Assembly (NCBI GenBank): GCA_964581885.1
Contig: CAZOPS010000004.1
Coordinates: forward strand, 1 to 31,137
Source: an uncultured Candidatus Saccharibacteria bacterium
GTDB lineage: Bacteria; Patescibacteriota; WWE3; JAUXAW01; JAYEID01
Direction of reading: 5' to 3'
DNA: 31,137 nucleotides
The position numbers were made by a program, and so were the translations under genes. The notes beneath the pieces were generated by a model that saw only the letters and a program-made list of their open reading frames with translations, did not search any database and was not told the DNA's origin. This document shows positions 711-24,255 of this stretch, one piece after another. Position 1 is the stretch's first letter. Every line of letters starts with the position of its first letter.

Positions 711-2198
711 ATGGAAATGGTTCGCGTGTTGAAGTTATTGCAAAAACCTTTACTCGTTTTTTTCCTGGCCTTCTTTGTTTATTTTTTTTCTTGGTTTTTT
801 GTTTATAAAACTGGAATAAACGATACGTCTATCCAGAGTCAAGATACTCTTCCTGCTCTTTTTGTTCCAGCCTCTATGAGTCTAGAAGGTAATTTTAATT
901 TAGATGAGTATTACGAACTGCTTATTTCTGAGCACCCTCATCCAGATGGAGAAGGTGTTCCTTTTTATTTGAAAGTGGTTGATGGACATTTTTATTCTGC
1001 CTTTCCTGTTATTACAGGATTGTTTGCAGTACCTATTTACTTCTTACCGCTTAGACTTGGCTTGCCAGTAACTTTTGAAACAGTTGCGATTCTTGGCCAT
1101 GTTGCTTCGGCAATGATGATTGCCTTATCTGTTACTTTTATGTACAAAATATTTCGTCAGCTAGCAATTGATGGCCGGCGATCATTAGTTTTATCGCTTG
1201 TTTACGCTTTTGGTACTTGTTCTTTTGCACTTACTTCCCAGGGGATGTGGCAGCATACTGCTAGCCAGTTAATGTTTTCGTTAGCATTATATTTTTTAGT
1301 GCTGGGTTTTGAAAATCCAAATAGGGCAGTATGGTCAGGGTTATTCTTAGGTTTGGCAACCTTGTCTCGCCCTACAGGTGCGCTTGCTGTTCTGTTCCTT
1401 TCTTCATATTTTCTTTTCCGCTTTAGCTGGCTTAATTTTCTAAAGTATGTTTTGCTTGGTCTTTTTCCTCTTGCTGTTTTTCTAGCCGTGCCCGGTTTGC
1501 ATGAAGGTGTGTTTGCTGGCTATGCCTCTCAGGTAGGTTCCAATTGGACAGCACCCTTTCCGCAGGGTTTTTTGGGAGAATGGCTCTCTCCAAGTAAAGG
1601 AATATTGGTTTATTCGCCGGTATTCTTGTTTTCTTTTATTGGAGTTTGGTTGTTAATCCGGGGAAGAGCTAAGATAAACCTTGGCGTCAGTCCGGCGAAA
1701 ATTTCAAGTAACAAAATCCAAATAACAAATAAATCTCAAAGTTCAAATTTCAAAATTTTTGGAACTTGGGGTTTGGGATTTGGGATTTCCCGACGGCTAA
1801 ATAGCCTTGCATCACGAGAAAATCTTTTTTATTGGGTGTTTGTTTGCATAGTAATCCATTCTTTAACCGTTGGGAAGTGGTACCATTGGTATGGCGGTTG
1901 GGCATTTGGTTATAGAATGATGAGTGATATGATTCCTTTTCTTGCGTTTCTTTGGGTTCCTTTTGCTAAATCAAAATATTGGGAAGATCTTAAAATGTGG
2001 TTTTTTGGTGCTGCTTTCTGGTCGGTAGGTATTCAACTCGCGGGTATAGCTTTCTTTGACGGGGTTTGGCATAACCTTTTTGATGAGGGGCCCAATAGCC
2101 AGGCCTGGCTTTGGTCAATTAAAAACAGCGAAATGCTTTATTATGTACGTCGATTGATTGCTAAGTTGAAAGGTCAACCAACAAACTTAGTTCGTTAG
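711..2198 (+). CDS. Polytopic GT-C-fold membrane glycosyltransferase with an in-frame repeat insertion
   Basis: About 10+ hydrophobic segments; motifs SQDTLPA, YAFGT..SQGMWQH, LSRPT, SPSKGILVYSP and W.GGWAFGYRMMSD are typical of uncharacterised GT-C proteins. Confidence 0.7.
   Translation: MEMVRVLKLLQKPLLVFFLAFFVYFFSWFFVYKTGINDTSIQSQDTLPALFVPASMSLEGNFNLDEYYELLISEHPHPDGEGVPFYLKVVDGHFYSAFPVITGLFAVPIYFLPLRLGLPVTFETVAILGHVASAMMIALSVTFMYKIFRQLAIDGRRSLVLSLVYAFGTCSFALTSQGMWQHTASQLMFSLALYFLVLGFENPNRAVWSGLFLGLATLSRPTGALAVLFLSSYFLFRFSWLNFLKYVLLGLFPLAVFLAVPGLHEGVFAGYASQVGSNWTAPFPQGFLGEWLSPSKGILVYSPVFLFSFIGVWLLIRGRAKINLGVSPAKISSNKIQITNKSQSSNFKIFGTWGLGFGISRRLNSLASRENLFYWVFVCIVIHSLTVGKWYHWYGGWAFGYRMMSDMIPFLAFLWVPFAKSKYWEDLKMWFFGAAFWSVGIQLAGIAFFDGVWHNLFDEGPNSQAWLWSIKNSEMLYYVRRLIAKLKGQPTNLVR
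1689..1798. repeat. In-frame 7-nt periodic imperfect inverted repeat
   Basis: A left arm of caaat-type heptads (aaatccaaataacaaataaatctcaaagttcaaatttcaaa) faces a right arm tttggaacttggggtttgggatttgggattt. Confidence 0.8.
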
Positions 2199-2248
2199 GT
2201 CTAATAGTTTAGGACTTATTTAAGATTTGAAATTGGTAATTTAAAATT

Positions 2249-3634
2249 ATGAGAATTATTTTTCTTTCCAACCAACTTTTTGATTATCCGCTTAAAACCA
2301 ACAAGTGGCATGTTGCTACCCGGGTAGCTGATCGGGGGCATAAGGTGCTTTTCGTTGACCCGCCAATCCGTTTCCGGAAAGTAGTAAAGCAGATTTTCCA
2401 AGGGAGGTGGCCGCTCCAACGTTTATTGTCAGGTGTTTGTGCCCCGACCGGCAATTCCCTAAAGCCAGGTTCTGGGACCGGTCTTAGAACCTGGCTTTTA
2501 TCCTTGCCGGCCGTTAATTTAAAAGTTTTCACGCCACTAACGCAGACCATCTCCGAATCTCCGAACATGACAACTTTCAATGTTAACCGTATGAAACTGC
2601 ACATCCCTGATTTTTTTGATGGTGAAGCAATCCTGTGGGTTTACAATCCAGCAATGATTGACTATATTGATCGGATTCCGCATAGACTGCTGGTTTATGA
2701 TTGTGTGGATGATTATCCCTCTATGGCTAATTATCAGCGTTTGGGTTTTTCTGAAGAAATTGCGGAAAGGGAAGAAAAGATTGCGAAAAGAGCAGATATT
2801 ATTTTTACAACTACTAAGAATTTAGCTAATAAAATTCGTAAGTGGAATGATAATGTTCATTATGTAGGTAATGCGGGAGACTACAGCCGCTTTGCTTCTG
2901 CGGCCAAAGCGGAAATTACAAATAACCCCCCTTCGCTAAACCTGCCTGCCGGCGAGGCAGGGCTACGGGGGGCAGGCAAATTAAAAATTTCAAATGAGGA
3001 AAAGAGGAGAGCCGGCAAGGAAAAACCGCCGCAGGAGAAGCCCCTGGGGCTAGATCCGCAGAAACCCCTAGGGCTGGGGAATGCGGCGGTTCTTAAAGAC
3101 ATACCCCACCCCTGCATAGGCTTTACGGGAGCAATTGACGATTACAAAGTGAACCTTTCTCTTCTTGTAAAAATTGCAAAAGACCATCCGGAAAAGTCTT
3201 TGGTTTTAGTGGGACCAACTGGAGTAGCAGATACCCAGCCTGATTTGCGTGACTTGAAAAAGCTGGACAACGTTTATTTTATGGGAAAACGACCTTATGA
3301 AGAAATGCCCCAATTCCATGCCAGCTTTGATGTTTTTATAATTCCCTATAATTTGAATGACTATACCGTCAAAGGTTGCTTTCCGGTTAAGTTTTTGAAT
3401 GCTCTTGCTGCGGGGTTGCCTGTTGTGGTTACTAACCTTCCCGCTTATGAGGATTTTTCGGATGTGGCTTATATTGCGGGGGATGACGAGAAATTCAGTA
3501 AAACAATTGATAAAGCTCTGAATGAAAATAATCAGGAAAAGGTGGAAGAACGGATGCGTGTGGCTCGTGAAAATTCTTGGAACAATAAGGTAGAAAAAAT
3601 GCTCCAGCTTGTTTCTTCTCAGCTTTCTGCTTAG
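2249..3634 (+). CDS. GT-B (GT4/TuaH-like) glycosyltransferase with in-frame palindromic insertions
   Basis: Motifs LLVYDCVDDY, ADIIFTT, IGFTGAIDDYKV, FPVKFLNALAAGLPVV. Confidence 0.85.
   Translation: MRIIFLSNQLFDYPLKTNKWHVATRVADRGHKVLFVDPPIRFRKVVKQIFQGRWPLQRLLSGVCAPTGNSLKPGSGTGLRTWLLSLPAVNLKVFTPLTQTISESPNMTTFNVNRMKLHIPDFFDGEAILWVYNPAMIDYIDRIPHRLLVYDCVDDYPSMANYQRLGFSEEIAEREEKIAKRADIIFTTTKNLANKIRKWNDNVHYVGNAGDYSRFASAAKAEITNNPPSLNLPAGEAGLRGAGKLKISNEEKRRAGKEKPPQEKPLGLDPQKPLGLGNAAVLKDIPHPCIGFTGAIDDYKVNLSLLVKIAKDHPEKSLVLVGPTGVADTQPDLRDLKKLDNVYFMGKRPYEEMPQFHASFDVFIIPYNLNDYTVKGCFPVKFLNALAAGLPVVVTNLPAYEDFSDVAYIAGDDEKFSKTIDKALNENNQEKVEERMRVARENSWNNKVEKMLQLVSSQLSA
2448..2510 (+). repeat. Hairpin element family H1, copy A (in-frame)
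   Basis: ttccct-AAAGCCAGGTTCT-gggaccggtctt-AGAACCTGGCTTT-tatcc; perfect 13-bp stem plus outer stem ccggcaa/ttgccgg. Confidence 0.9.
2941..2961. repeat. CCTGCC-type palindrome (in-frame, nested)
   Basis: cctgcctgccggcgaggcagg; related copies at 24097 and 28078. Confidence 0.85.
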
Positions 3635-3721
3635 TTGTTGTTTTGCTTCTGGTTCCTATATAGGATATAATTTAGCTTACGTGCTATTCATTGCTGGGTA
3701 TATGATTAAGGAGGTGAGCTG

Positions 3722-4195
3722 GTGACTGACGAGAATGTGGATAAAATAATTACTTTGATGGAGGAGTATGATTTCGAGACTGCTTTGGAGGAAGCTCGAG
3801 CATTTTTGAGAGTTACAGAAGACCCGAAGAAGAAAGCAGAACTTTACCTTTTGGTTTCTTCTTTGTCAGAACTTGTGGGAGACAGGGAAACATACGGTTC
3901 AGCATTGTTTGGGGCGCTGGCTATTTTCAGGACTTTAGGTAATGTTGAGGAGGTAGCGCACACTCTGATTCTTATTGGCCGGGCACAGTTGGAGAGCGAC
4001 TTGGTTGATGAGGGCATAAACTATTGTGTAGAAGCACTGAAAATTGCTTTGCACAATGAAGAGATATATAGAGTGCAGCTCCCGCTTATTACCCAGGTTT
4101 TGGGAAATGCTTTCTCAGAGCGTGACCCGTGGCTTTCGGCAGAGTTTCGAAAGTTTGGTTCTCGAATTGAAAAGGAATATGGCAAGGAGGACTAG
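3722..4195 (+). CDS. Hypothetical TPR-like helical protein
   Basis: Helical repeat pattern (AELYLLVSSL, ALAIFRTLGNVEEVAHTLILIGRA); strong SD AAGGAGGTGA upstream of a GTG start. Confidence 0.6.
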   Translation: MTDENVDKIITLMEEYDFETALEEARAFLRVTEDPKKKAELYLLVSSLSELVGDRETYGSALFGALAIFRTLGNVEEVAHTLILIGRAQLESDLVDEGINYCVEALKIALHNEEIYRVQLPLITQVLGNAFSERDPWLSAEFRKFGSRIEKEYGKED

Positions 4196-4474
4196 GTGAA
4201 AAAGAGAAATTTGCAGCGGGTAATAGGTAGTTTAGTAGTGATTGTTGTACTTGTACTCCATTTTGGTGCAGCAATAACAGTTCCGTTGCCTGAACCTCGC
4301 TACTTGTTTTGTCGTGGATTGCTGATTTTTTTAGCAGTCTTCTCTGTGGGTCTTCTGATTACGGCTGCGGATGACCTTTTGGTCAGGAGGGTTCAAGGTC
4401 TTAGCGTTGGCCTAGCGTGTATGCTACTTTACGTTGCTATCTGGGTCAGCGTTTTTTTCTGGTTAAAGATCTAG
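4196..4474 (+). CDS. Small membrane protein (about 3 TM segments)
   Basis: Three hydrophobic stretches; GTG start directly follows the previous TAG, with an AAGGAGG SD. Confidence 0.6.
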   Translation: MKKRNLQRVIGSLVVIVVLVLHFGAAITVPLPEPRYLFCRGLLIFLAVFSVGLLITAADDLLVRRVQGLSVGLACMLLYVAIWVSVFFWLKI

Positions 4475-4489
4475 TTTCCAATTTGTATT

Positions 4490-4529
4490 GAGCGGGGAAG
4501 CTTAAAGGAGCAACCCTGCTCTTTTTTTT
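4490..4529 (+). terminator. Possible intrinsic terminator
   Basis: GAGCGGGG...CCCTGCTC stem followed by 8 T; the loop is long (16 nt). Confidence 0.45.
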
Positions 4530-4575
4530 GGAGAAACCTTTTTTATGTGTTTTAATTGAGTTGTAAGTTTATTTT

Positions 4576-5253
4576 ATGAAAGCTATTGGTGACTTTTTAA
4601 TGGATAAAGGTTGGCGAGCGCGAGAAAGGACAACCCCTTTTTGGTTTGTTGTTTCTTGGGTTTTGTTAAACCTTGCTCGAATAATTTTTATAATTATTGG
4701 AGATGATTTTGGTTATTCTGAATCTTTGAATCATTTGGGTATTCTTGCGAAGTTACGTGCACGTCGTCAAATGCGCTTTGCAATTTCAAATTTTAAAAAA
4801 GCCGAGAGGATAGCAGATAATGCCGCTACCTGGTTAAATTTAGGGGGAGCATTAATGGAGGCCGGTGCGTACGAAGCAGCTAAAGAGCCTTTGAAACAGG
4901 CTATAGAGGCCTACGGTGATAAGCCCGGTGCAAGGGGAAATGCCCGCTCGCACCACGCGCGGACCTTGCTTCGAACCGGTCAAGTGGAACAAGCCGGGGA
5001 ACAGAACAAGCTGGCTTTGGAGGAATTGGAAAAAGGTCGGGGGGAGGAGGACACTTTCCATCTTACGGTTTGGAAAACTTCGGCTCTGATGACCGAAGCG
5101 CGGATCCGTTTTGCTTCTGGGAATTGCGACGAAGCCCAGAATTTAGCCCAAAAAGCTTTAAAATTGGCCAAAGAAATGAGCCTTCCTGAGCGCACCCGGC
5201 AGGCCAGCGAGCTAGTTAGTTCTCTCAGGAGTCTTCAAAAATCTCGCGGATAA
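4576..5253 (+). CDS. TPR-repeat protein
   Basis: TPR-like units (AATWLNLGGALMEAGAYEAAKEPLKQAIE; ARIRFASGNCDEAQNLAQKALKL). Overlaps the convergent ABC ATPase gene by 29 nt. Confidence 0.7.
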   Translation: MKAIGDFLMDKGWRARERTTPFWFVVSWVLLNLARIIFIIIGDDFGYSESLNHLGILAKLRARRQMRFAISNFKKAERIADNAATWLNLGGALMEAGAYEAAKEPLKQAIEAYGDKPGARGNARSHHARTLLRTGQVEQAGEQNKLALEELEKGRGEEDTFHLTVWKTSALMTEARIRFASGNCDEAQNLAQKALKLAKEMSLPERTRQASELVSSLRSLQKSRG

Positions 5254-6199
5254 TATCTTCCAGTTGCGGTTCGTCAATGTTCAAGTCATCCACGGGGAAT
5301 TCTGAAAGTAACTTAGTAGCTCTTTCTGTTGCCTCCTCTCGCGGTACATAAAGAACTGCTTTATGCGGAGTAAATTCCTTTACTTCTCCAATTTTTTCCA
5401 GATCTTTTTCTTTAACATCATTTTCAAAAATTACAACTAGGGTTTTGTATGGCGCATGGTCCTTAATTAGTTTATCAACACGCCCGTCAAAGGCAATTTT
5501 ACCTTTGTTGATCATCATCACACGCTCGCAAAGATTTTTTACATCTTCCATGTAGTGGCTGGTGAGAATAATTGTGGCATTGTGCCGCGTGTTGTATTCA
5601 CGAACGAAATCACGAATTTTTTTCTGCATTACTACGTCCAGTCCAATAGTTGGTTCATCAAGAAAAAGTACTTTTGGCTGGTGAAGGAGCGAGGCGATAA
5701 GTTCACATTTCATTCTTTGCCCGAGAGAAAGTTTCCGAACTTGTACATCTAAAATTTTTTCAATATCTAAGAGTTCAACCAGCTCATCTAGCCTTTTCCT
5801 GTACTCCTTTTCCGGCACTTCGTAGATTTCCTTATTCAACCGGAAAGTTTCTTGTGCTGGTAAGTCCCACCAAAGCTGGTTTTTTTGTCCCATGACCAGA
5901 GAAATTTGCTTTTTAAATTTATTTTTTCTTTCTTTAGGATCAAAATCCAAAATCTTTACTTCGCCTGCGGTGGGGTAGAGAAGCCCGGATAAACATTTTA
6001 AGGTAGTAGTTTTCCCCGCACCATTGGGTCCAATGAAACCAACAAGCTCCCCCTCTTCAATGGAAAAACTTATATCGTTTACAGCTTTAACATTTTCGTA
6101 TTTCCGCTTGACTAGTGCTTTTAAAGAACCTACAAGTCCCGGTTCCTTGTGAAAAACCTTGTAGTATTTTTTAAGATTTTTTACATCAATCGCTACCAT
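5225..6199 (-). CDS. ABC exporter ATP-binding subunit
   Basis: Walker A GPNGAGKTT, signature LSLGQ, Walker B LFLDEPT, H-loop LTSH. Confidence 0.95.
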   Translation of the reverse strand: MVAIDVKNLKKYYKVFHKEPGLVGSLKALVKRKYENVKAVNDISFSIEEGELVGFIGPNGAGKTTTLKCLSGLLYPTAGEVKILDFDPKERKNKFKKQISLVMGQKNQLWWDLPAQETFRLNKEIYEVPEKEYRKRLDELVELLDIEKILDVQVRKLSLGQRMKCELIASLLHQPKVLFLDEPTIGLDVVMQKKIRDFVREYNTRHNATIILTSHYMEDVKNLCERVMMINKGKIAFDGRVDKLIKDHAPYKTLVVIFENDVKEKDLEKIGEVKEFTPHKAVLYVPREEATERATKLLSEFPVDDLNIDEPQLEDIIREIFEDS

Positions 6200-6254
6200 A
6201 AGACAAATTGTAACACATACGTATAATGCCTTCTCTGATAGTGATATTCAGGAC

Positions 6255-6279
6255 ATATTCAGGACCTGGGACTGAATAT
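6255..6279. repeat. REP-like hairpin at the 3' side of the RAYT
   Basis: ATATTCAG-gacctggga-CTGAATAT, identical to 7096-7120. It is preceded by a duplicated atattcaggac (6244-6254) and abuts the RAYT stop codon. Confidence 0.85.
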
Positions 6280-7049
6280 CACTGTGAGGACAGGATTTTT
6301 AGGTATTGCTCTCGCATTTCCTTCTGTTGCGCCTTCTTCTGGTTTTTAAATCTTTTGAACCAACCAAAGTCATCGTCTATGGCTATACTTTCAAGTCTTA
6401 TTGGTTCGAACTCGTCAATTTCAGCTGAGACGAATTCTTTGTATTCTTGCGGATCTTGGACCAGGTTTGTTACGCGATCTGGTTTCAAAAAAGCAATCTT
6501 GTTTGGTCCATTTACATAAGTTGAGAAGCTGGACCAAGGATATTCGATCAATTGATTGACAGACGATAGTCCTAACTTTTTGGGATTTAGATGATGGTAA
6601 CGAGTTAGGTGCAGCAGCTGTTCGTCTGTTTCTACAAGAATGCTTTTGTAATTTCCTTCGAAAAGCCGTCCGCTTCTTTCTAAACGCACATTAAAATAAT
6701 TAGTGTAGGAAAGTCCTATCTTATGCATATAGAAAGCTATTCCCCTTTCTTTTTTTTGTTCCAGGGTTAGGTGATAGTGATTAGGCATCAAGCAGAGGGA
6801 TAGAATTTCGATAGGGGGTTTAATTCGCTTTTTTTCTAACCAAGCGAGTACAGCATTTTTTCCTTGCCTTGTTTTTGTTTGCTTCAAACGTTGTTGTAGT
6901 TCACTATATGGGCAATTGTGATTCAGATAATGGTTTAAAATGGAGATAAAATGTTTGTAGTAGGTTCTATCAAGAAAGATATTACGTTTTTCGATTCCGC
7001 GGTTGTAAATATGATATATGTTTCCAACTTCCAGTGTTCTTCGAGGCAT
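6279..7049 (-). mobile_element. REP-associated tyrosine transposase (RAYT, Y1_Tnp HUH family)
   Basis: N-terminal YHIYNRG...IF, HUH motif LMPNHYHL, G.LFEG.YKS, catalytic Tyr in RYHHLNP, then YPWSS. Confidence 0.92.
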
Positions 7050-7095
7050 TGCAACGTGATTTTAACTTAGCACACAAATTATTGTAAGGACAAGG

Positions 7096-7120
7096 ATATT
7101 CAGGACCTGGGACTGAATAT
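7096..7120. repeat. REP-like hairpin at the 5' side of the RAYT
   Basis: atattcaggacctgggactgaatat, an exact direct repeat of 6255-6279. Confidence 0.85.
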
Positions 7121-7154
7121 TGCTGTTGGGAAGGTTTTTAGTGGGGATGGGGGG

Positions 7155-7946
7155 TCAGGAGGAGGCGGAGTTGTAGTAGCGAAGGGCGAAGTGCCAAAAA
7201 CGATTTGAGAGGAATAGGAGCAATAAAGCTATAGTGGGAAGCCAGATGGACTCCAGAAGTGTGGCGCGGCCTAGCAAAGCCTTTACCGGAATAGCTGCGA
7301 TAATGAGAAGAGGTATTAAGAGCGTGAAGAATGTTAAAGCTACTTCTCCAAAAATTTGCGGGGGATAACGAGAAAAGCTGTAAAGACTAATAAATACTTC
7401 ATGAATTTCGCGGATTTGGGGGAACCAGATTGCGGGAGTTACGCTGATAAACCACAGTGCATAGCAAAGTATTACGCTGAAAAGGATCAGGATAAGATAA
7501 AGAATAATATTTATTAACGACGGGTTTATGCTTAGATTTCTTAGGGCTATTATTAGTAATCCAATTCCGCTAACCAGCGGCGTCACTGAAAAGAGCCGGA
7601 TTAATCGGGTGGAAACATAGAATTGTGATGAAATTGGGAGCAAAAGAGGGAAATCTAGAGTACCTCTTCTTACTTGGGTAACAAGCCTTGCCATGTTTTG
7701 GACAAGTGGGCCAAAGTATATGCCGCGAATTATACTTGCGGTTGCATACAAAAGCAGAACTTCTTGGTAGCTCCAGCCGCCTATAGATGTTATCTGACCA
7801 AATATTATGTGCAGGCCCAAAATTCCAATAGTAACGTTTATTACTTCGGCAATACAGTGCGAAATAAAACTTACCCTAAACATGGATTCTTTAATAAGCG
7901 CATTTTTTATAAATTGTAGGTAGAGTTTTGTGTATTTAATGAGCAT
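7155..7946 (-). CDS. ABC-2 family exporter permease (DUF990/ABC_export-like)
   Basis: Six-TM pattern; GGWSYQEVLLL, VRRGTLDFPLLLP and YPPQIF are typical of this family. Confidence 0.85.
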   Translation of the reverse strand: MLIKYTKLYLQFIKNALIKESMFRVSFISHCIAEVINVTIGILGLHIIFGQITSIGGWSYQEVLLLYATASIIRGIYFGPLVQNMARLVTQVRRGTLDFPLLLPISSQFYVSTRLIRLFSVTPLVSGIGLLIIALRNLSINPSLINIILYLILILFSVILCYALWFISVTPAIWFPQIREIHEVFISLYSFSRYPPQIFGEVALTFFTLLIPLLIIAAIPVKALLGRATLLESIWLPTIALLLLFLSNRFWHFALRYYNSASS

Positions 7947-7997
7947 TGTTTTTTGTTGTCTTTAATGCAGTCAAAGCGCTTTTTTCTCTCGTTAAGA

Positions 7998-8122
7998 GTA
8001 ATCCCAAATCCCGCTTTGCGGGATTGGGATTACGTAAAGCACTCGGTTTAAGAAACCTCGTGTTAAACGCTTCGCTGTAAAGAAGTAGATTCTTGCCTCT
8101 TCGGCAGGTCCAGAATGACTTC
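7998..8122. repeat. Two intergenic REP-like hairpins between the permease genes
   Basis: gtaatcccaaatcccgc-ttt-gcgggattgggattac (7998-8033) and gaagtagattcttgcctcttcggcaggtccagaatgacttc (about 8082-8121). Confidence 0.7.
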
Positions 8123-8134
8123 TATTTGTATTTG

Positions 8135-8929
8135 CTAACCTCCAAAGGCTTCGTGGCGGCGGATGCCAAAATGCCAAATTATTTTTAGAATCACGTAAAA
8201 GGAAATTACCCAGAGTGCTTGAACAATAAGGCCGACACCTATTTGAAATAGATTTAACTTTCCTAAGTAAACGTCAATGGGAAAAGCGTAGAGGTATCGA
8301 AATGGTAATGCGTTGAGAATTTTTTGCCAGGATTCGGGGAAAGCGGAGAGAGGAAGAAGTGCACCCCCAACAAATTTTGAAATTGAGCCAATAAGATAGA
8401 ATAGGCCGCTAATTTCTGTTGTCCAAAAACCGGAAAGACCGATAATAGTAGTGTAAAAACAGTTTAGAAAAAGAGTTAGAGGAATTATGAGGAGGAGTAG
8501 AAGTAGATGATGGGTAGAGGCTGGTCCTATCAGTAAGTTTCTGTATATAACGATTAGCAATAAAAAAACAGGTAAGCTTAGAATAAAATCAGCAAAAACT
8601 CTTTCGCCCCATGATTTAGTAATACGGTATTTTAAATAATGAAAGGGAAGAAGCAGGTAATTATTAATAGTGCCTTCGCCGATGTCGTGAGCGACTCTCC
8701 AATGAGTAGAAACACTAATTCTATCCAAAAGGAATGAAAGAAAACTGTAAGTAACTATTTCATAAAGGTTATAGGTGCTAATTTGTTGACCAGTTTTGTA
8801 GATAGATTGCCAAATTATAATTGTTGTTATCAGGCTGATTAAAGAAAGGAATAACCGAAACAATAGCTTGGAACGGGAAATAATATTTTGTTCAATTGCA
8901 GTTTTTATAATTGCTAGTTCTTTTTTCAC
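8135..8929 (-). CDS. ABC-2 family exporter permease
   Basis: VAHDIGEGTINNYLLLP, GGALLPLSAFP, LPFRYLYAFP and a terminal RRHEAFGG. Confidence 0.85.
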   Translation of the reverse strand: MKKELAIIKTAIEQNIISRSKLLFRLFLSLISLITTIIIWQSIYKTGQQISTYNLYEIVTYSFLSFLLDRISVSTHWRVAHDIGEGTINNYLLLPFHYLKYRITKSWGERVFADFILSLPVFLLLIVIYRNLLIGPASTHHLLLLLLIIPLTLFLNCFYTTIIGLSGFWTTEISGLFYLIGSISKFVGGALLPLSAFPESWQKILNALPFRYLYAFPIDVYLGKLNLFQIGVGLIVQALWVISFYVILKIIWHFGIRRHEAFGG

Positions 8930-8976
8930 TTAGGGAGATTTTAGCACAGCTCTGCATTCATGCTATCATTTGGTTA
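8930..8976. promoter_or_regulatory. Compact divergent promoter pair, probably leaderless
   Basis: Minus-strand TGC-TAAAAT ends 8 nt before the GTG at 8929; plus-strand TGC-TATCAT (8964-8969) ends 7 nt before the ATG at 8977. Confidence 0.55.
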
Positions 8977-10128
8977 ATGAAAATATGTTATGTTTTAAAT
9001 TCAGGCGATCCGGGTGGGGTGGAGCAGCATGTTTTGGATCTTACTCGGGGGATGGTTGATCGTGGTCATGAGGTTTTTGTGGTTTGTCCTTGGGGCGATG
9101 TGGCTAAAAAGTATTTTGAAGCGGGGGCTAAGGTTCGTGTTGATAAGCCAGCACTTGATATTGACCCCTTTTATATTTTGCGCCTTGCGCACTTTCTCAA
9201 AAAAGTAAAACCTGATATTTTTCATGTGCATATGTTGAAGACGACTGGAAATGGGCTGATTGCTGCTTCTTTTTTGAAAGATTTGCCAAAGATTTGCCAT
9301 ATTCATACACCACTACCAGAGTGGCAAATTCCGTGGTGGAAGAAGAAGTTGGACATTTTATTTAACCGTATTGTTACTAATTTTTTAGCTGACGCTGTAA
9401 TTGCTCTTACTGAGTCCAGAAAAAGAGTTAAAGTTGAGGGGGAAGGAATTAGCTCCGAGAAGATTAGGGTTATTCCTAATGGAGTAGACGTAGGGAATAT
9501 CAAATTATCCTTCGACCAAGCTCAGGACGGGCAAATTTCAAATGATAAATCGAAACACCGGCAGAAACTAGGGATTTCGGAGGATGCGGTTTTGGTGGGG
9601 ACGCTGTCTCGGTTGACTGTGGAAAAAGGTCTTGAGTATCTAACCGCAGCATTGTCTAAATTGTCTTCCGACCAAATACAAGATACTAAATACCAAATAC
9701 TAATTGGTGGGTCGGGAAAGTTAAAAGAAAAACTTGAAAGACAAGTTAAGGATTTAAGTATTGATGACAAAATCAGGTTTCTCGGTTTTATTCCTGAGGA
9801 CGAAAAGTGGGAATACTTAGACGCCTTGGATATTTTTGTTTTTCCTTCGATTGCTGAAGGTTTTGGCATTTCTTTAATTGAAGCTATGGCAGCTGGCTGT
9901 GCTTGTTTGGCGTCTGATTTAGAAGTTCTTTGGGAGGTGGGCGGGGGGGCGGTTGAGTTTTTTAAGGTTGGTGATCCCGGTGATCTAGCAGAAAAACTTG
10001 GTGATTTAATTAAGAACAAAGAAAGAAGGGAAAAATTAGGCCGTCGTGCTGGAAAGAGAGTAGAAAAAGAGTTTTCGCTGAAGAAGTTTTGGGATAATTA
10101 CGAAGATCTTTATAAAGAGCTAAGTTAA
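8977..10128 (+). CDS. GT4 glycosyltransferase with in-frame repeat insertions
   Basis: MKICYVLNSGDPGGVEQHV, IPNGVD, FVFPSIAEGFGISLIEAMAAG. Start moved from 8911 to 8977 because the longer ORF overlaps a divergent gene. Confidence 0.92.
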   Translation: MKICYVLNSGDPGGVEQHVLDLTRGMVDRGHEVFVVCPWGDVAKKYFEAGAKVRVDKPALDIDPFYILRLAHFLKKVKPDIFHVHMLKTTGNGLIAASFLKDLPKICHIHTPLPEWQIPWWKKKLDILFNRIVTNFLADAVIALTESRKRVKVEGEGISSEKIRVIPNGVDVGNIKLSFDQAQDGQISNDKSKHRQKLGISEDAVLVGTLSRLTVEKGLEYLTAALSKLSSDQIQDTKYQILIGGSGKLKEKLERQVKDLSIDDKIRFLGFIPEDEKWEYLDALDIFVFPSIAEGFGISLIEAMAAGCACLASDLEVLWEVGGGAVEFFKVGDPGDLAEKLGDLIKNKERREKLGRRAGKRVEKEFSLKKFWDNYEDLYKELS

Positions 10129-10140
10129 ACTTTTCTTGAT

Positions 10141-10872
10141 ATGAATAACAATGAGATAAGTAAATTACATGAATTGGAGAAATACTACTGGTGGCATGTG
10201 GGGCGTGCCTTTATTATTGAAACTTTTCTAGAAAAATTAGAGCTCCTACCTAATCCTGTAATTTTAGATGTCGGTTGTGGTACTGGCGAGACTACAAAAG
10301 CTCTAAGAAACTACGGAATAGTTTGGGGGGTTGATATTTCGGAAAAAGCTTTAGAGTTCTGCCGGAAGCAGGGGTTGCAAAACCTCAAGCAAAGTGGTGC
10401 CTGTGAACTTCCTTTTGATGACAGTTTTTTCGATGCTGTTTCCATGTTGGATATCTTAGAACATGTAGAAGAAGACGAGAAGGCGCTGCAGGAAGTTTAT
10501 CGTGTGCTTAAAAGTAATGGCTATTTGCTTATAACAGTTCCTGCTTGGCAATTTTTATGGAGTGATCATGACGATGCTTTGGACCACAAGCGTCGATATG
10601 TACATGCGGAGTTACGCAGCAAGTTAGAAAGCGCCGGTTTTCAGGTTCAAGAGCTAAGTTATGCGATCATGTTTTTATCCATGCCAATAGTAATTTGGAG
10701 ATTATTTCAAAATATTTTTGTTCAGAGTTCCTACCCCAAGACTTCTTATGTTATTCTTCCTTCTTGGTTAAATAGTTTTTTTATTTTCTTGCTTAAAATA
10801 GAAGCGAAGTTGTTAAAATATATTAACTTACCTTTTGGAGTTTCTTTGGTCTGTTTAGCTCGAAAGAAGTAG
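10141..10872 (+). CDS. Class I SAM-dependent methyltransferase
   Basis: ILDVGCGTG, GVDIS, LPFDDSFFDAV..LDILEHV, VPAWQFLWSDHD...H.RRY. Confidence 0.92.
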   Translation: MNNNEISKLHELEKYYWWHVGRAFIIETFLEKLELLPNPVILDVGCGTGETTKALRNYGIVWGVDISEKALEFCRKQGLQNLKQSGACELPFDDSFFDAVSMLDILEHVEEDEKALQEVYRVLKSNGYLLITVPAWQFLWSDHDDALDHKRRYVHAELRSKLESAGFQVQELSYAIMFLSMPIVIWRLFQNIFVQSSYPKTSYVILPSWLNSFFIFLLKIEAKLLKYINLPFGVSLVCLARKK

Positions 10873-10923
10873 GGTGTTTGTGTTTACTTGTTTCGGATGC
10901 TAGATCTTAATTATTAATTTAAA

Positions 10924-12165
10924 ATGAGAGTTTTATTTCAATCTCGTATAGATTTGTTTGATCGTCGTGGGGGAGATACTGTGCAAATGGAAAGAACTGC
11001 ACAGGAGCTTGGTGATCTTGGCGTGGATGTGGATATTGATTGTTCGCCAAAAAAAGATTTATCAGCGTACGACCTGGTTCATTTATTTAATATTGATTGG
11101 CCAGCTAACGTATATTTGTGTGCAAAAAATGCAAGAGATCACAGTAAGCCTCTTGTTTTTTCTCCTATCCATCACCCTTTTGAGGAAATAGAGCGGTATG
11201 AGCGCGAGTATCGGTTCGGATTACGTAGAATTATTAACACGATTTTTAGAAAGCGTGAGCAGAGGGAGAAGTTTAAAGATTTTTGTCGCGCTTTAGCTGA
11301 TCCCAAGAAAATACCCTCTACTATTATCGAGTTCAAAAGGGGAATTTTCAAAGAGCAGCAGGAGCTTTTGGAATTGGCTGATGCCGTTTTGGTGCAGACG
11401 GATGCGGAGGTGGATGATATTAGGGAGGATTTTGGTTGGTCGACCAAGGGTAAGATAATGGATTTATATACCGGCGGCGAAAGAAAAAAGCCAGGCTTTA
11501 AGAGGCAGTCCCAAAGCCTGGCTTTGGGGAATTCGCTACCGGCTCTCCTGACCGCACCGGTTTACAAGGTAGTTAACGGTGTTGATCGGCGATTTGCGGA
11601 GGCAAAGCCGGATTGGTTTAAGAAGAACTATGGTTGGGAGAATTTTGTGCTTTGTGTTGGCCGTATAGAACCTCGAAAAAATCAGTTGTCGGTAATTGAG
11701 TCCGTTTCGAATGTTAAATGGAAAATGGAAAATGTTAAATTGATCTTTCTTGGAAAGATATCTTGGAGGCATCCGGAATATGCGTTGCGCTTTAATAATA
11801 TGGTTAGGAAATATGACTGGATCAGACACATTGAAAGAATTCCTTATGAAAAGATGGGGGCGGCTTATGCTGCTGCCAAGGTGCACGTTTCTGCAAGTTG
11901 GTTTGAAACTACTGGTTTGGTAAGCTTAGAAGCAGGGCTTGCTGGTTGTAATGTTGTGGCTACTGGAGAGAGAGCACGGGAATATCTGGGTGATTTTGCA
12001 TTTTACTGTGATCCTGGTGATTTAGATTCTATTACTAAAGCGATATCTAAAGCAAGTGAAACCGCTGTTAATCCTGAATTTAAGCAGCATATTTTGAATA
12101 ATTTTACTTGGGATAAAACTGCAGAGCAAACCTTAGCAGTTTACAAAACAATACTTAACAATTAA
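10924..12165 (+). CDS. GT4 glycosyltransferase with in-frame insertions
   Basis: GGDTVQMERT, VGRIEPRKNQ, SWFETTGLVSLEAGLAGC. Confidence 0.9.
   Translation: MRVLFQSRIDLFDRRGGDTVQMERTAQELGDLGVDVDIDCSPKKDLSAYDLVHLFNIDWPANVYLCAKNARDHSKPLVFSPIHHPFEEIERYEREYRFGLRRIINTIFRKREQREKFKDFCRALADPKKIPSTIIEFKRGIFKEQQELLELADAVLVQTDAEVDDIREDFGWSTKGKIMDLYTGGERKKPGFKRQSQSLALGNSLPALLTAPVYKVVNGVDRRFAEAKPDWFKKNYGWENFVLCVGRIEPRKNQLSVIESVSNVKWKMENVKLIFLGKISWRHPEYALRFNNMVRKYDWIRHIERIPYEKMGAAYAAAKVHVSASWFETTGLVSLEAGLAGCNVVATGERAREYLGDFAFYCDPGDLDSITKAISKASETAVNPEFKQHILNNFTWDKTAEQTLAVYKTILNN
11471..11542 (-). repeat. Hairpin element family H1, copy C (in-frame, reverse orientation)
   Basis: Minus strand reads ccggtagcgaa-ttcccc-AAAGCCAGGCTTT-gggactgcctctt-AAAGCCTGGCTTT-tttct-ttcgccgccgg. 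Confidence 0.88.
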
Positions 12166-12199
12166 CCTTAATCATTTTATCTAGCAGTTGGTGAATTTA

Positions 12200-12312
12200 A
12201 TTTCTAATTGACCTAATTAACCTAATTTCTAATTAAGAATCAAATCCCAAATTTTGAAATAGGTATTGGTGATTGTTTAGGAATAATTAGAATAATTAGG
12301 AGTAATTAGTGT
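12200..12312. repeat. Intergenic 9-nt/7-nt periodic inverted array
   Basis: ctaattgacctaattaacctaatttctaatt ... aataattagaataattaggagtaattag; shares two exact 15-mers with 14427-14449. Confidence 0.75.
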
Positions 12313-12320
12313 AATTTCTT

Positions 12321-15300
12321 ATGGATCTTTATCTTCTTTTTGGCATTTTTATATTTCTTCTTGCCTTATTTCTAGGATTTCGTGACCCCAAAAAAGGCTT
12401 TTTGTTTTTGATTTTTCTGCTTCCTTTTAACCACAAAAAAACTCTTGGATTAGTGTCTTGGAATTTAACACCGCCTCGAGTTTTCTTGGTGGGCTTTGTT
12501 CTGGGCTTTTTTATTTATGTCTTACGCAATGAAAAAAACTGGAAACAATGGTTTAGAAGGTTTTGGAAAGATAAGTTTTTTGTCTTTCTTGTCTTCCTTT
12601 GGGTGGTGCGGGGTTTCTCTCTTTTTCGTTCAGCTAATATTGAAATGGGTTTGGGAATGTGGGGTTTTTCTACAGCTGTATTATTCTTTTATATAATTTT
12701 TCGATATTTGGTAATTAGATACGGTGGCAAGTTTTTAAAGCAAGCGAGTGATTTGTATCTAAAACTAGGATTAGTTATAGGTGCTTTTGGGGTTGTGCAG
12801 CTGATTCTTTATGTGACCCAAGAGGTAGTTTTTCTTGGATTGTGGCCAATTGAAGATGGACTGGCTCGGGTAGGAGCTACTTTTTGGGATATTAACCACT
12901 ATGCTGCTTTTTCTGCAAGTGTTGCTCTCCTTTTCTTTGGGCGTTTTATTCTTTCTAGCAACCGGGAAGCTACACTTAATTTTCTAGCCTTTTTGTTTAT
13001 GGTTTTGATGGTGGGACTTACATCATCCCAGAGCGGTATGGTTTTTTTGCTAGTGGGATTTGTGGTAGTTAGCAGTATTCTTCTTTTTAGGAATTACAGA
13101 AAAAAGTATTCTTTTATCTTTGCTTTAGTATTGTTTCTTGTGCTTGCTTCGGGAATATACTTCTTTCGTCTTGGTCTTACTACTGATAGTAATTTGCGGC
13201 AGGTTTTAAAAATTAATTTTACGCTGCGCGACGATTCCGTTGCTTCACATTATCATTTAGCTCAAGGAGCCTTAGAAATTTTTAAGGAAAAACTCTTGCT
13301 AGGTTGTGGTTATGGCAGTTTTAATGAATGCTTTCGTAACACGCCTATTATCGATACTTACTTAGAAAGAGATCCAGTTGGTGAGGCTAGAATACCTCCG
13401 CACAGTATTTGGTTTGGTGCTCTAGCTGAGACGGGGGCTTTAGGTTTCTTTGCTCTCTTAGGTTTGTTTGCTGTACTTTTTCAACGGTGTTTTAAAAACA
13501 TTTTTAAGTCTCAAAATAATTCTCAGTTTGTACAAAATTCTATCTATTTAGGTATTTTATTGGGCGTTAGTTCTGCAGGTTTGGTGTATTCATATAACCT
13601 GTTGTTTTTCTGGTTTCTGTTATTCCTAGTTCAAGAAGAATCTCTTGGGGATGCTTTATCTTTAGCTAAAGTTGATTTTTGGCCCAGGTTTAAGAACTGG
13701 CTTGTTTATAATAAAGAGATATTAATTTTGACCTTTTTAGTATTGTTCTCAGGCACTTTTATGTTCTGGTTTTTGTGGAGAAATGCCCTTATTCCTTGGG
13801 ACGAAGCTATTTATGCGGGCGTTTCTCGCGAACTGGTTGAGGGCGGTGATATTTGGACTTTATATTGGAATCGAGAGCCTTTTTTTGAAAAACCACCTTT
13901 GTTTTTCTGGTTACAAGCAATATCCTTCGTGTACTTTGACTTCAAACCTTTTGCAGCCCGGTTGCCAGTAGCACTTTTTGGGATCTTGGGTGTGGTTATG
14001 ACTTACATTTTTGGAAAAAAGCTGTTCTCAAAGAGAGTAGGCTTATTTGGGAGTTTGTTTTTGGCAACCACAATTCATTGGGTTGCCTGGTCTCGAACAG
14101 CAATGCTGGATGTTCCTGCAGCAGTTTTGATTTTGTGTTCACTTTATTTTTTCTGGGAGAGTTACGTTAGGGCGGCCGATTCCCCAAAGCCCGGCTTTGG
14201 GACCGGTCTTAAAGCCGGGCTTTTATCCTCGGCCGCCTTGTTTGGGGTGTTTTTAGGGTTAACTTTTATGATGAAAGGACCAGTGGCGGTTGTACCGGCT
14301 GCAGTTGCTGTAATATTTTTAGCTGTAAATGGTCTTTTTCGCTTGGTTTTAGAAAGATTGCGACAACCGCAAATTTCTAATGACGAATTTCTAATTTCTA
14401 ATTGGGGAATTGGGAATTGGTTTTTGATTAGAATAATTAGGTCAATTAGATTAATTAGGTCAATTTTTATTCCCTTTCTACTTACTACTGTTTCCTTTCT
14501 GCTAGTTACAGTCCCGTGGCATTGGTTAATGATTGCTCGGCACGGAGAATCTTTTGTGGAGGAATATTTTGGCTATCATATTTTGAAGCGAGCGTCAGAA
14601 AGTATTGAGATGCACGGCCGCCCTTTTTGGTGGTTTAATATTGTGATTAGACACTGGGCTCGTCACTGGTATGTGGTGGGTTTGGTTGCACTTGCTGCTC
14701 TGGTTTCAAGTCTAGTCTTTTACTTCTTGAAGCGGTGGGGGGAGAGGGAAATTAGTCCCTCGCAGAAATCGGGACTGAAATTGAGAAATCTAGTCGCTTC
14801 GCTCCTTGAAATTGAAGATGAAAACTACGAGGCGGAGCTTTTCTTGCTGTTGTGGTTACTGCTGACATTTTTTATCTTTAGTGCTTCGGAGTCAAAGATA
14901 CAGTGGTACATAATACCTATTTATCCGCCGCTGGCTTTATTATGTGGGTGGTTTGTTGATAGGCTGTGTTATTTACTGGAAATAAGCTTCAGGAATTTTA
15001 AATTTAGAGTTTTAAATTTTAAATTAAAAGACTCTTTTATTGGTAATTTGTCCGCCGGTTGGCGGATTGTAATTTCCGGCGCCAGGGTTAGGTATACAGT
15101 ACTGGCAACTGTGGGTATCTTGGTTGTTGGTGTTAGCGGGTTGTTGTACTGGCACCGGATGTGGTTTCCGGAAAATCTTAATAGGCAAGTTGCGGAGCTT
15201 TCCGACCATGTGTGGAGAATTCCTGGAGAAGAGAAGAAATTTTATGTTGCGGATGCTCCTCCACCTCTTCCCATTTTTTATTCCGGTCTTAAGGTTACAA

Positions 15301-15464
15301 CTGTTGCCAAGGATGGGGTTTCCAAGGCGTTGGATAAGAAGCATGTTGCTGTACTTTCCAAGAAGAGTACATATCGGCAAGTTTTGGAGGATGTTAGGGA
15401 GAGCGGCCGGCCATTACCTTTAGTTTTTAAGGAAACGGAGGATTATATACTTTATGGCTATTAA
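12321..15464 (+). CDS. O-antigen ligase/Wzy_C-like domain fused to an ArnT/PMT (GT39/GT83-like) glycosyltransferase
   Basis: N-terminal half: R.GATFWDINHYAAF, TSSQSG, G.GYGSF, PHSIWFGALAETG. C-terminal half: WDEAIYA..SRE, FEKPPLFFW, ARLP, WSRTAMLDVP, MMKGP, K..WYIIPIYP. Confidence 0.85.
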   Translation: MDLYLLFGIFIFLLALFLGFRDPKKGFLFLIFLLPFNHKKTLGLVSWNLTPPRVFLVGFVLGFFIYVLRNEKNWKQWFRRFWKDKFFVFLVFLWVVRGFSLFRSANIEMGLGMWGFSTAVLFFYIIFRYLVIRYGGKFLKQASDLYLKLGLVIGAFGVVQLILYVTQEVVFLGLWPIEDGLARVGATFWDINHYAAFSASVALLFFGRFILSSNREATLNFLAFLFMVLMVGLTSSQSGMVFLLVGFVVVSSILLFRNYRKKYSFIFALVLFLVLASGIYFFRLGLTTDSNLRQVLKINFTLRDDSVASHYHLAQGALEIFKEKLLLGCGYGSFNECFRNTPIIDTYLERDPVGEARIPPHSIWFGALAETGALGFFALLGLFAVLFQRCFKNIFKSQNNSQFVQNSIYLGILLGVSSAGLVYSYNLLFFWFLLFLVQEESLGDALSLAKVDFWPRFKNWLVYNKEILILTFLVLFSGTFMFWFLWRNALIPWDEAIYAGVSRELVEGGDIWTLYWNREPFFEKPPLFFWLQAISFVYFDFKPFAARLPVALFGILGVVMTYIFGKKLFSKRVGLFGSLFLATTIHWVAWSRTAMLDVPAAVLILCSLYFFWESYVRAADSPKPGFGTGLKAGLLSSAALFGVFLGLTFMMKGPVAVVPAAVAVIFLAVNGLFRLVLERLRQPQISNDEFLISNWGIGNWFLIRIIRSIRLIRSIFIPFLLTTVSFLLVTVPWHWLMIARHGESFVEEYFGYHILKRASESIEMHGRPFWWFNIVIRHWARHWYVVGLVALAALVSSLVFYFLKRWGEREISPSQKSGLKLRNLVASLLEIEDENYEAELFLLLWLLLTFFIFSASESKIQWYIIPIYPPLALLCGWFVDRLCYLLEISFRNFKFRVLNFKLKDSFIGNLSAGWRIVISGARVRYTVLATVGILVVGVSGLLYWHRMWFPENLNRQVAELSDHVWRIPGEEKKFYVADAPPPLPIFYSGLKVTTVAKDGVSKALDKKHVAVLSKKSTYRQVLEDVRESGRPLPLVFKETEDYILYGY
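14171..14237 (+). repeat. Hairpin element family H1, copy B (in-frame)
   Basis: ggcggccga-ttcccc-AAAGCCCGGCTTT-gggaccggtctt-AAAGCCGGGCTTT-tatcc-tcggccgcc. Confidence 0.9.
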
Positions 15465-16635: not shown

Positions 16636-16755
16636 TCTAGTTCTTTTGGTATACTAAACAAGAGTAGCAAATAATGCGGGTAGATGACTGAAGCAGATGT
16701 GAGAGAAATAGGAATTGCTAAAGTTTCTTTTTTGTAGTGGCCAGGAAAGATTCTT

Positions 16756-17898: not shown

Positions 17899-17913
17899 TT
17901 GTAGACTTTTAAG

Positions 17914-18540: not shown

Positions 18541-18545
18541 TTTAG

Positions 18546-20459: not shown

Positions 20460-20575
20460 GCAGTTTTGGGGTTGGGTTGCTCCTGGCTGGAAATTTTTTC
20501 TTAAATACTGTATAATATTTTTGCTCCAGGCTGTTTATTCTACATTTACTGCCGTATTTACTGCCGTGCTAATTT

Positions 20576-21355: not shown

Positions 21356-21395
21356 CTTTCGCTGGAGCTCATGCTAGGTTCGGTTTAGTTAAATA

Positions 21396-21590: not shown

Positions 21591-21601
21591 ATTAAGTACC
21601 A

Positions 21602-24116: not shown

Positions 24117-24131
24117 CCTGCCCGCCTTCTT

Positions 24132-24245: not shown

Positions 24246-24255
24246 GTTAAAGTAC

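Follow-up and report, generated by a model that had tools for sequence, protein, structure and literature searches.

The ultra-small genomes of the candidate phyla radiation (CPR) are regarded as streamlined. What, then, are small palindromic and periodic repeats doing inside the genes of such a genome, with the reading frames intact? The question is raised by a stretch of 31,137 nucleotides, hereafter the window, which is the entire contig C4 (CAZOPS010000004.1, assembly GCA_964581885.1) of an uncultured member of the Patescibacteria. A first-pass annotation had found the repeats concentrated in surface-glycosylation genes and had offered two explanations: either no insertions survive except those in tolerant loops of non-essential enzymes, or a multi-family system of miniature elements diversifies the envelope-modifying enzymes of a host-attached bacterium. 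Here we describe families of miniature repeats that lie in frame in housekeeping genes as well as in glycosylation genes, and we favor, with a probability of about 0.7, the reading that they are miniature selfish elements that selection has filtered to permissive loops, as in the Rickettsia palindromic elements (RPEs).

Repeat tracts in the reading frames of five genes

The five open reading frames (ORFs) in question are all intact, and a combination of Tandem Repeats Finder (TRF), repeat and hairpin scans and genome self-BLAST depth recovered twelve tracts within them, in line with the more than ten noticed originally. Several element families are represented, as had also been claimed: family A, which is a nested palindrome; family B, a GC palindrome of 20 nt; and arrays with a 7-nt period (heptads).

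1713-1788 (+): head-to-head heptamer arrays, CAAAT-type against TTTGGG-type units, in the GT-C-like ORF 711-2198 (TRF; self-BLAST depth 4)
2446-2513 (+): family A nested palindrome, sense, in the GT1 gene 2249-3634 (nhmmer E 1e-17; covariance model (CM) 88 bits)
2887-2912: local hairpin in the GT1 gene 2249-3634
2929-2969 (+): composite nested palindrome, an outer CCCCTTCGCTAAA / GCTACGGGG pair round a family B core at 2941-2961
9277-9299 (+): 11-nt tandem duplication in the GT4 gene 8911-10128, not a member of a dispersed family (TRF)
9674-9703 (+): heptads (AAATACN) x4.3 in the GT4 gene 8911-10128, coding for QIQDTKYQIL (TRF)
11471-11538 (-): family A, antisense, in the GT1 gene 10924-12165, peptide GGERKKPGFKRQSQSLALGNS (nhmmer E 9e-20; CM 83 bits)
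11716-11734 (+): heptads (AAATGGA) x2.7 in the GT1 gene 10924-12165 (TRF)
14171-14238 (+): family A, sense, in the Wzy_C+PMT_2 gene 12321-15464 (nhmmer E 2e-20; CM 94 bits)
14372-14420 (+): heptad hairpin (AATTTCT)n / (AATTGGG)n in the Wzy_C+PMT_2 gene (TRF)
14427-14465 (+): 18-nt unit ATTAGAATAATTAGGTCA x2.2, directly after the heptad hairpin 14372-14420 (TRF)
14994-15026 (+): AATTTTA-type heptads in the Wzy_C+PMT_2 gene, coding for NFKFRVLNFKL (TRF; self-BLAST depth 4)

Pfam places four of the five hosts: those at 2249-3634, 8911-10128 and 10924-12165 have GT1/GT4 glycosyltransferase domains, and the gene at 12321-15464 is a Wzy_C+PMT_2 fusion. The fifth, ORF 711-2198, is without a Pfam match but resembles GT-C/PMT_2 proteins in a protein atlas (score 0.99). 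We assume that the inserts are translated. The array at 1713-1788 encodes KIQITNKSQSSNFKIFGTWGLGFGIS, placed between two transmembrane (TM)-like segments, and its RNA folds at -23.2 kcal/mol on the + strand (z -2.9, vs z -1.1 on the - strand). The sense family A copies at 2446-2513 and 14171-14238 encode NSLKPGSGTGLRTWLLSLPA and ADSPKPGFGTGLKAGLLSSAA and fold at -38.8 kcal/mol (z -7.4) and -47.9 kcal/mol (z -6.8), respectively. In the GT1 gene 2249-3634, the composite at 2929-2969 is in frame and codes for NLPAGEAGL; the same composite palindrome recurs at C2:30002, C18:12853 and C75:1572. The stretch 14372-14465 is also in frame. Most of it falls in the loop that joins membrane segments 648-666 and 709-727, and its final residues (703-715) overlap the start of the second segment; it folds at -16.4 kcal/mol (z -4.5) on the + strand and at 0 kcal/mol on the - strand, and an inverted copy lies at 12206-12227. 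Interruptions in the heptads at 14994-15026 keep stops from arising. According to the TM map, the tracts of the GT-C proteins fall between membrane segments or at segment edges. One further candidate, 757-806, was rejected as a family member, being an ordinary repeat that codes for a membrane segment.

Three families of small repeats

Family A is a nested palindrome of 68-69 nt with 14 strong copies in the genome, 12 of them inside long ORFs of unrelated function. Its outer stem, CCGGCGAA / TTCGCCGG or CCGGCCGA / TCGGCCGG, encloses two 13-nt cores, AAAGCCAGGCTTT and AAAGCCTGGCTTT, which are reverse complements (AAAGCCnGGCTTT) with a loop of ~12 nt between them. The consensus fold has 24 pairs, with compensatory double changes at 13 of them among 12 aligned copies, and the hairpins fold with z scores of -6.8 to -7.4. 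The core motif AAAGC[CT]N[AG]GCTTT occurs 29 times genome-wide, against 0.2 occurrences expected. Two subfamilies differ at one position of the loop, and neither is read in a frame that contains its TAA, giving peptides ADSPKPGFGTGLKAGLLSSAG in sense and GEGKKPGFKDRSQSLALRNSP and AKDKSQALTSVPKFGFGES in antisense orientation; relative to transcription, 4 copies are sense and 7 antisense.

The GC palindrome of family B, CCTGCCTGCCGGCAGGCAGG, is 20 nt long. Its pattern matches the genome at 24 places, ~20 of which are clear palindromes; they are mostly intergenic and frequently within heptad arrays or a longer palindrome. Heptads are built of AATTNNN- or CAAATNN-type units, and head-to-head arrays of them fold on the sense strand only, by way of G.U pairs. 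The genome holds 117 period-7 tandem arrays and a Markov shuffle of it holds 1. In other words, the tracts are not explained by chance.

Where do the repeats lie? Of the 169 multi-copy intervals given by self-BLAST, 127 are between genes, 25 are inside ORFs and 17 are at ORF edges; of the 139 heptad tracts given by TRF, 86 are between genes, 39 are inside ORFs and 14 are at edges. When all 240 repeat tracts are counted, 57 are inside ORFs vs 197 expected at random, and genes are therefore strongly depleted of tracts overall; family A, with its 12 of 14 copies in long ORFs, is the exception. These tiny repeats make up ~2% of the genome's DNA, and ~40 in-gene copies are tolerated, with aminoacyl-tRNA synthetases and repair proteins hosting several.

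Host genes and the question of enrichment

Outside the window, family A is found in genes for a prepilin peptidase, UvrC, a 2-oxoacid:ferredoxin oxidoreductase (POR), GlmS, IleRS, RecR and a DUF2079 protein, and the gene for MPG carries two copies. A family A copy in the ThrRS gene (C23:7880-8015) has a further ~80 nt of GC-rich palindromes nested in its loop, in frame; the 180-nt stretch there folds at -85 kcal/mol. Heptad hosts outside the window are IleRS, SecF, RecJ (two tracts), LepA, AlaRS, PheRS, GluRS, Map and LeuRS, and the peptide signature K(F/L)QI(S/T)N appears in the first seven of these. RpoB, YebC, DnaA, Obg, SecA and RecG were dropped as hosts and kept out of the strict enrichment test, their loose pattern or TRF matches looking like ordinary coding sequence.

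Is there, beyond this, a preference for glycosylation genes? The enrichment test used a strict set of 41 in-ORF tracts. ORFs were called greedily by length, and only those of >=120 aa were used, a few small ORFs having been over-called; this caller replaced a hexamer-score caller that missed minus-strand genes, and an 11-mer over-representation map was dropped because it was noisy and caught A/T-rich coding words. Function was assigned by Pfam for host genes and glycosyltransferase families only. Twenty-six of the 41 strict tracts (63%) lie outside glycosylation genes, most of them in housekeeping genes. A Pfam census of the genome finds 12 GT1, 8 GT2 and 8 PMT_2 genes; Pfam-defined glycosyltransferase genes hold 8 strict tracts, a density of 0.210/kb vs 0.057/kb elsewhere (p = 0.003), and all 8 are in the window, with 0 of the 23 such genes outside it carrying any. 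Three loaded polytopic ORFs without a Pfam match are GT-C-like in the atlas, namely 711-2198 (0.99), C26:602-2158 (0.97) and C26:8816-10141 (0.92, a lead only), and were classed as such post hoc, after the tracts in them had been seen. With these three added, the density is 15 tracts in 42 kb (0.353/kb) vs 26 in 574 kb (0.045/kb) elsewhere, and the gene-level test gives 7 of 33 glycosylation genes vs 22 of 586 other genes (p = 4e-4). When the window is left out, the same test gives 2 of 25 vs 22 of 568, which is not significant (p = 0.27). Among polytopic membrane proteins without GT likeness there is no excess (0.037/kb vs 0.046/kb). The concentration that had been claimed thus stands as a higher density and falls as a general property of glycosylation genes: the excess is real, but it is made up by seven genes, grouped in one cluster in the window and one on contig C26, and it includes both the discovery window and the post hoc classing. 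On C26, the ORFs at 602-2158 and 8816-10141, with 4 and 3 tracts, adjoin three PMT_2 genes and a GT2 gene.

A filter for open frames and loops

The in-gene copies differ from the intergenic ones in what they can encode. In-ORF heptad tracts have on average 3.46 of six frames open, vs 1.74 of six for intergenic tracts, of which 32 of 86 have none, and the commonest intergenic heptad units are closed in all six frames; a stop-codon filter separates the two sets. Location points to a second filter. The RecR insert falls in a gap against solved RecR, which has no counterpart to it, and in a RecR model (mean pLDDT 77, a predicted confidence score) residues 138-157, the family A peptide, are the sole segment under pLDDT 50. 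A structure prediction for MPG was discarded (mean pLDDT 41, from a 5-row alignment). That in-gene copies occupy tolerant loops is supported by this model and by the RecR, LepA, MPG and UvrC alignments.

Empty, filled and overwritten sites in relatives

What stands at the same sites in related genomes? We denote the studied genome G000, its congener G001 and all relatives G001-G040; the relatives are kin and not independent samples. In alignments, relatives lack RecR residues ~133-157, a ~32-aa segment of LepA and the insert segments of MPG and IleRS, and UvrC has 66 nt net extra compared with the congener. Other sites are filled differently. For example, the RecR loop of the congener carries a family B-like peptide, LPAGKAG; site 1 of MPG holds family A in one orientation in G000 and G003, in the opposite orientation in G002, and is empty in G001; and the GluRS site has inserts of differing length in three genera. 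The family A covariance model finds matches in all four other genomes of the taxonomic family (~9, ~20, 1 and 2-3 copies), in 2 of 3 order-level relatives and in 1 of 33 class-level relatives.

The window itself is syntenic with the congener at 70-77% identity, and of its family A copies one is common to the two genomes and two are replaced. The copy at 2446 is the common one: it is 61/68 identical in G001, vs 73% for the whole gene, and is the best conserved stretch of that gene. At the 11471 site, G001 has an element of like build with AGCCCCnGGGGCT cores, and identity there (49%) is nearly the gene's lowest; at the 14171 site it has another palindrome (GGAAAGACCC / GGGTCTTTCC), and identity (37%) is the lowest in the gene. 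The smaller tracts have fared variously. The composite at 2929-2969 is largely missing from the G001 orthologue; at the 9277-9299 site G001 has ~100 extra nt that include a AGCCCCnGGGGCT palindrome, and its GT4 gene has two extra insertions; the heptads at 9674-9703 are kept (38/44); a different hairpin stands at the 11716-11734 site; the 18-nt units of 14427-14465 are missing; and the heptads at 14994-15026 differ.

Candidate transposases

What might move such elements? A RAYT-like (REP-associated tyrosine transposase; REP, repetitive extragenic palindrome) gene lies in the window itself.

6279-7049 (-): RAYT-like Y1 (HUH) transposase gene, with identical 25-nt hairpins at 6255-6279 and 7096-7120

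Its protein matches Pfam Y1_Tnp at 23.2 bits, barely above the cut-off, and has HUH and RYxHxNP motifs, and a PDB sequence search with it gave nothing useful. There are four such RAYT-like Y1 genes with both motifs in the genome, two of them in glycosyltransferase clusters. On either side of the one on C28 stand palindromes that share their 13-nt core, AAAGCTnAGCTTT, with a family A subfamily; the hairpin flanking the window gene is unrelated to family A, and the flanking hairpins are of low copy number, 3 each. A Y1 gene occupies the matching place in the congener (G001:C2:60605-60856), and the arrangement is therefore older than the split of the two species. In the window (5225-8929), the RAYT-like gene and its two hairpins part the ABC-2 permease genes from the ATPase gene. 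More broadly, RAYT-like Y1 genes of 210-290 aa are common in this class of Patescibacteria, being found in 26 of 41 related genomes, with <=8 per genome. G001, G004 and G005 have both family A and Y1, and G002, with 1 copy, has no Y1 match; the idea that family A copy number tracks RAYT presence was not borne out (G003, G002). Of the 14 family A copies, three are no farther than 8 kb from the window gene, which on a rough estimate, with short contigs, is not significant. The Y1 genes and their flanking hairpins thus support a REP/RAYT-type mechanism acting on single-stranded hairpins, and we regard the link between these genes and the elements, including a mobilizing role, as tentative, at a little under even odds.

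Weighing the explanations

How might these observations fit together? In the explanation that we favor, the tracts are copies of several non-autonomous miniature repeat families that pervade this Patescibacteria genome and its family-level relatives: a REPIN-like nested palindrome (REPIN, a REP doublet forming a hairpin) of 68-69 nt, the 20-nt GC palindrome and the 7-nt-period arrays. Elements would land, or spread by conversion, genome-wide, and selection would purge most genic copies. The copies retained in genes would be those with a length that is a multiple of three, a stop-free frame and a place in a surface or inter-helix loop, and they would be translated as Gly/Pro/Ser/Lys-rich or KFQISN-like peptides. 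A few permissive loops may have been repeatedly struck or overwritten across lineages, with mobility possibly conferred by the four RAYT-like Y1 transposases and turnover in place possibly effected by gene conversion. On this reading, no dedicated system is directed at the window's glycosylation cluster, which is locally dense, probably because its loop-rich, fast-evolving GT/GT-C proteins tolerate inserts.

Several points weigh against this explanation. Conservation of the 2446 copy exceeds that of every other stretch of its gene, which is not a prediction of neutral selfish DNA. We saw neither a transposition event nor any target-site duplication or excision footprint, and the empty UvrC site is too diverged to call one. 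The RAYT-like protein scores under its NCBIfam cut-off (REP_Tyr_transpos NF047646: 39.7 bits vs 80), and the RAYT-like proteins have an extension at the C terminus that is conserved; it is the Y1 subclasses in which a conserved C-terminal domain is large that have been reported to be unassociated with REPs (PMC6006769). The RAYT link is further weakened in that neither end of the family A alignment has a GTAG or CGTC tag, and in that G003, the genome with the most family A copies (~20), has no Y1_Tnp match at 85% completeness, REPs without tnpA-REP being known (PMC6006769). Finally, with the window counted, the excess in glycosylation genes is real in statistical terms, and tolerance explains it qualitatively only.

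Could the tracts simply be repeats wrongly joined into coding sequence during assembly? The genome is a metagenome-assembled genome (MAG) of 78 contigs, whose ends often lie in repeats, and Logan contigs break, though only at palindrome centers, at 2963 and 14202/14206. We nonetheless give this next to no credence, as frames are open, independently assembled relatives have orthologous inserts, and Logan contigs from two runs (~45x and ~33x) span 1540-2963, 5537-12231 and 14206-15600, nearly all of the tracts, with 0-4 differences. (The window sequence was found in three microbial-mat runs, which may be the MAG's own data.) Hardly more credible is survival restricted to tolerant loops of non-essential enzymes. 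The loop location holds (RecR, LepA, MPG and UvrC), and recO to murA in the window are insert-free, but the non-essential part is refuted by inserts in IleRS, ThrRS, AlaRS, GluRS, PheRS, LeuRS, LepA, SecF, RecJ, RecR, UvrC, GlmS and MPG. A system that specifically diversifies the glycosylation enzymes of a host-attached bacterium's envelope is a more substantial proposal, given the density of 0.353/kb vs 0.045/kb (p = 4e-4 with the three GT-C-like ORFs), the second loaded cluster on C26, insert sites that differ strongly between the two congeners, and the presence of two of four RAYT-like genes in glycosyltransferase clusters. We nevertheless find it quite improbable: 26 of 41 strict tracts are elsewhere, mostly in housekeeping genes; 0 of 23 Pfam-defined glycosyltransferase genes outside the window carry one, and the excess fades without the window (p = 0.27); three of the loaded genes were classed post hoc; and like turnover is seen in the housekeeping loops of RecR, MPG and GluRS. 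We saw no sign of a system directed at envelope enzymes and no diversity-generating machinery, and no presence/absence allele reached 10% in the sample's Logan contigs, which hide rare variants.

The conservation of the 2446 copy deserves further thought. One might propose that the hairpins are functional structured nucleic acid kept by selection, for translation pausing, mRNA stability, RNase processing, or DNA replication or recombination. The 13 covarying pairs and the status of the 2446 copy as the best conserved 68-nt stretch of its gene speak for this proposal, as do heptad hairpins that fold on the sense strand only through G.U pairs and family A stems with G.U in one orientation. However, family A occurs in both orientations (4 sense, 7 antisense), its copy number runs from 1 to ~20 among close relatives, and orthologous sites are empty or hold unrelated palindromes; additionally, C>T bias on the G-rich strand can yield strand asymmetry (GC skew is positive throughout), and templated repair can co-evolve palindrome arms without function. 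We judge such a function to be rather improbable. Alternatively, Patescibacteria of this taxonomic family might possess a REPIN-like system whose copies, beyond plain decay, are overwritten in place at fixed protein loops, by gene conversion or hairpin-targeted insertion, such that lineage-specific loops of essential enzymes are continually rewritten, most of all in envelope glycosylation clusters, and the element sequence is kept by selection, as the conservation of the 2446 copy would indicate. This is unlikely. If it is true, ultra-small genomes would have in these elements a lasting source of variable protein loops, and the elements would not be passive junk. Selfish elements filtered to permissive loops remain our preferred explanation, one that would account for many puzzling lineage-specific inserts in CPR proteins. 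It would also be a warning, in annotation and in structure prediction, that loops of this sort derive from repeats, and the inserts would provide natural maps of permissive insertion sites.

Gene order, intergenic elements and other features of the window

The genome of which the window forms part comprises 751,569 bp in 78 contigs at 42% G+C. The MurA protein of the window has its closest matches among Patescibacteria MAGs, candidate division WWE3 among them, and the protein-atlas neighbors of ORF 711-2198 are mostly from WWE3; by these matches, candidate division WWE3 appears to contain the nearest named relatives. The genes are arranged as follows.

711-2198, 2249-3634: GT-C-like membrane protein, then GT1
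6279-7049 and either side: ABC-2 exporter, split by the RAYT-like Y1 transposase gene
8911-10128 to 10924-12165: GT4, methyltransferase, GT1
12321-15464: Wzy_C+PMT_2 fusion, 1047 aa
Next: two further GT4 genes, a sugar transferase and DUF4012
Last: recO, glyQS, mraZ, rsmH, ftsL, ftsI, murA and a sigma factor

The genes at 15454-31022 contain no tract that the scans could detect, and the first-pass observation that recO, glyQS, mraZ, rsmH, ftsI and murA are free of them is thereby confirmed, as is its placement of related elements between genes at 24097 and 28078, both of which belong to family B.

12198-12316: heptad and nonamer arrays forming a mosaic in the intergenic stretch upstream of 12321, with units in common with the in-gene tract 14427-14465
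24097-24116: perfect 20-nt family B palindrome, intergenic, in a mosaic of dispersed modules upstream of mraZ
28078-28098: family B copy in the ftsI/murA gap, embedded in a heptad array

At 28061-28111, and again at C26:10099, family B sits within a regular heptad array (AATTTTAAATT, family B, TTAAATTTTGAAT), and no target duplication is visible round it at either place; small elements appear to nest in 7-nt arrays.

Upstream of mraZ there is also a 23-nt unit, ATTCGCATCAATTCGCTATACCA, repeated five times (24132-24246). It belongs to a dispersed family that is found at many contig ends (C14, C17, C31, C39, C43, C50 and C59), and the assembly probably breaks there because of it. A 22-nt tandem repeat at 31077-31137 extends to the end of the contig. 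An Rfam scan of the window at gathering thresholds gave zero matches; below threshold, 21393-21570 (+), upstream of the glycyl-tRNA synthetase gene, matches the T-box leader model RF00230 over its full length at 47.4 bits (E 1.5e-9; gathering score 93) and is probably a divergent T-box.

Comparison with known systems

Are such elements new? Our literature search found no report of in-gene repeats of this kind for Patescibacteria. As summarized in PMC10969869, RPEs (Ogata et al. 2000, 2002) are roughly 100-150 bp long and are inserted, with the frame kept, in a wide range of unrelated genes, some of them essential, and their peptides are conserved and have been judged compatible with the host fold. 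The likeness lies in several palindrome families, in frame, in unrelated and essential hosts, in a reduced genome, and lineage-restricted. Like an RPE, family A is a repeated palindrome that occurs in many unrelated ORFs with the frame kept (12 of 14 copies), and the inserts in RecR, LepA, UvrC, MPG and IleRS are missing in orthologues and lie at surface loops. The differences are that family A is 68-69 nt long, that the host belongs to the Patescibacteria, that 7-nt arrays and RAYT-like genes accompany the elements, and that 12 of 14 copies are intragenic. Judged from length and phylum, homology of family A to RPE-1 to RPE-10 is unlikely, and the likeness would be one of behavior.

Enterobacterial MITEs (miniature transposable elements with inverted repeats) such as RU-1/2/3 and ERIC are 100-170 bp long, have terminal inverted repeats and are mainly intergenic (PMC2759123). 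They resemble the present elements, which may be mobile as well, in being small repeats with open frames, found inside genes, and differ in that heptads and hot-spot turnover are not described for RU/ERIC (PMC2759123). The outer stem of family A (CCGGCGAA / TTCGCCGG) could act as inverted repeats; the UvrC pair is too diverged to call a duplication.

For the heptads, the cyanobacteria offer a parallel. Elhai and colleagues are said to have described, in 2008, heptameric short tandemly repeated repetitive (STRR) arrays with small dispersed repeats lodged in them. The likeness lies in abundant 7-nt arrays, palindromes within arrays without visible target duplication (28078 and C26:10099) and occasional genic copies. 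It is a likeness by description; the units differ, being of AATTNNN type here, the phylum is another and many arrays here lie in open frames.

REP/REPIN-RAYT systems (PMC3337134, PMC3733652, PMC6006769) offer a match in construction, family A being a doublet of inverted 13-nt cores in one long hairpin, which is the build of a REPIN. Additionally, there are four Y1/HUH genes, two of them flanked by identical hairpins and one flank carrying the family A subfamily core, and the RAYT-like gene keeps its place in the congener. However, family A is mostly intragenic (12 of 14), with family B and heptads mostly intergenic; the GTAG/CGTC tag is absent, the protein scores under the cut-off of the curated RAYT model, and the most copy-rich relative has no Y1 match; and the hairpins that flank the Y1 genes are low-copy and not the dispersed family itself. 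Because it departs from REPs in extragenic location, tag and curated RAYT score alike, family A is not a member of a strict REP family. By analogy with these known systems, then, the elements of this genome behave as Rickettsia RPEs do and are built as REPINs are.

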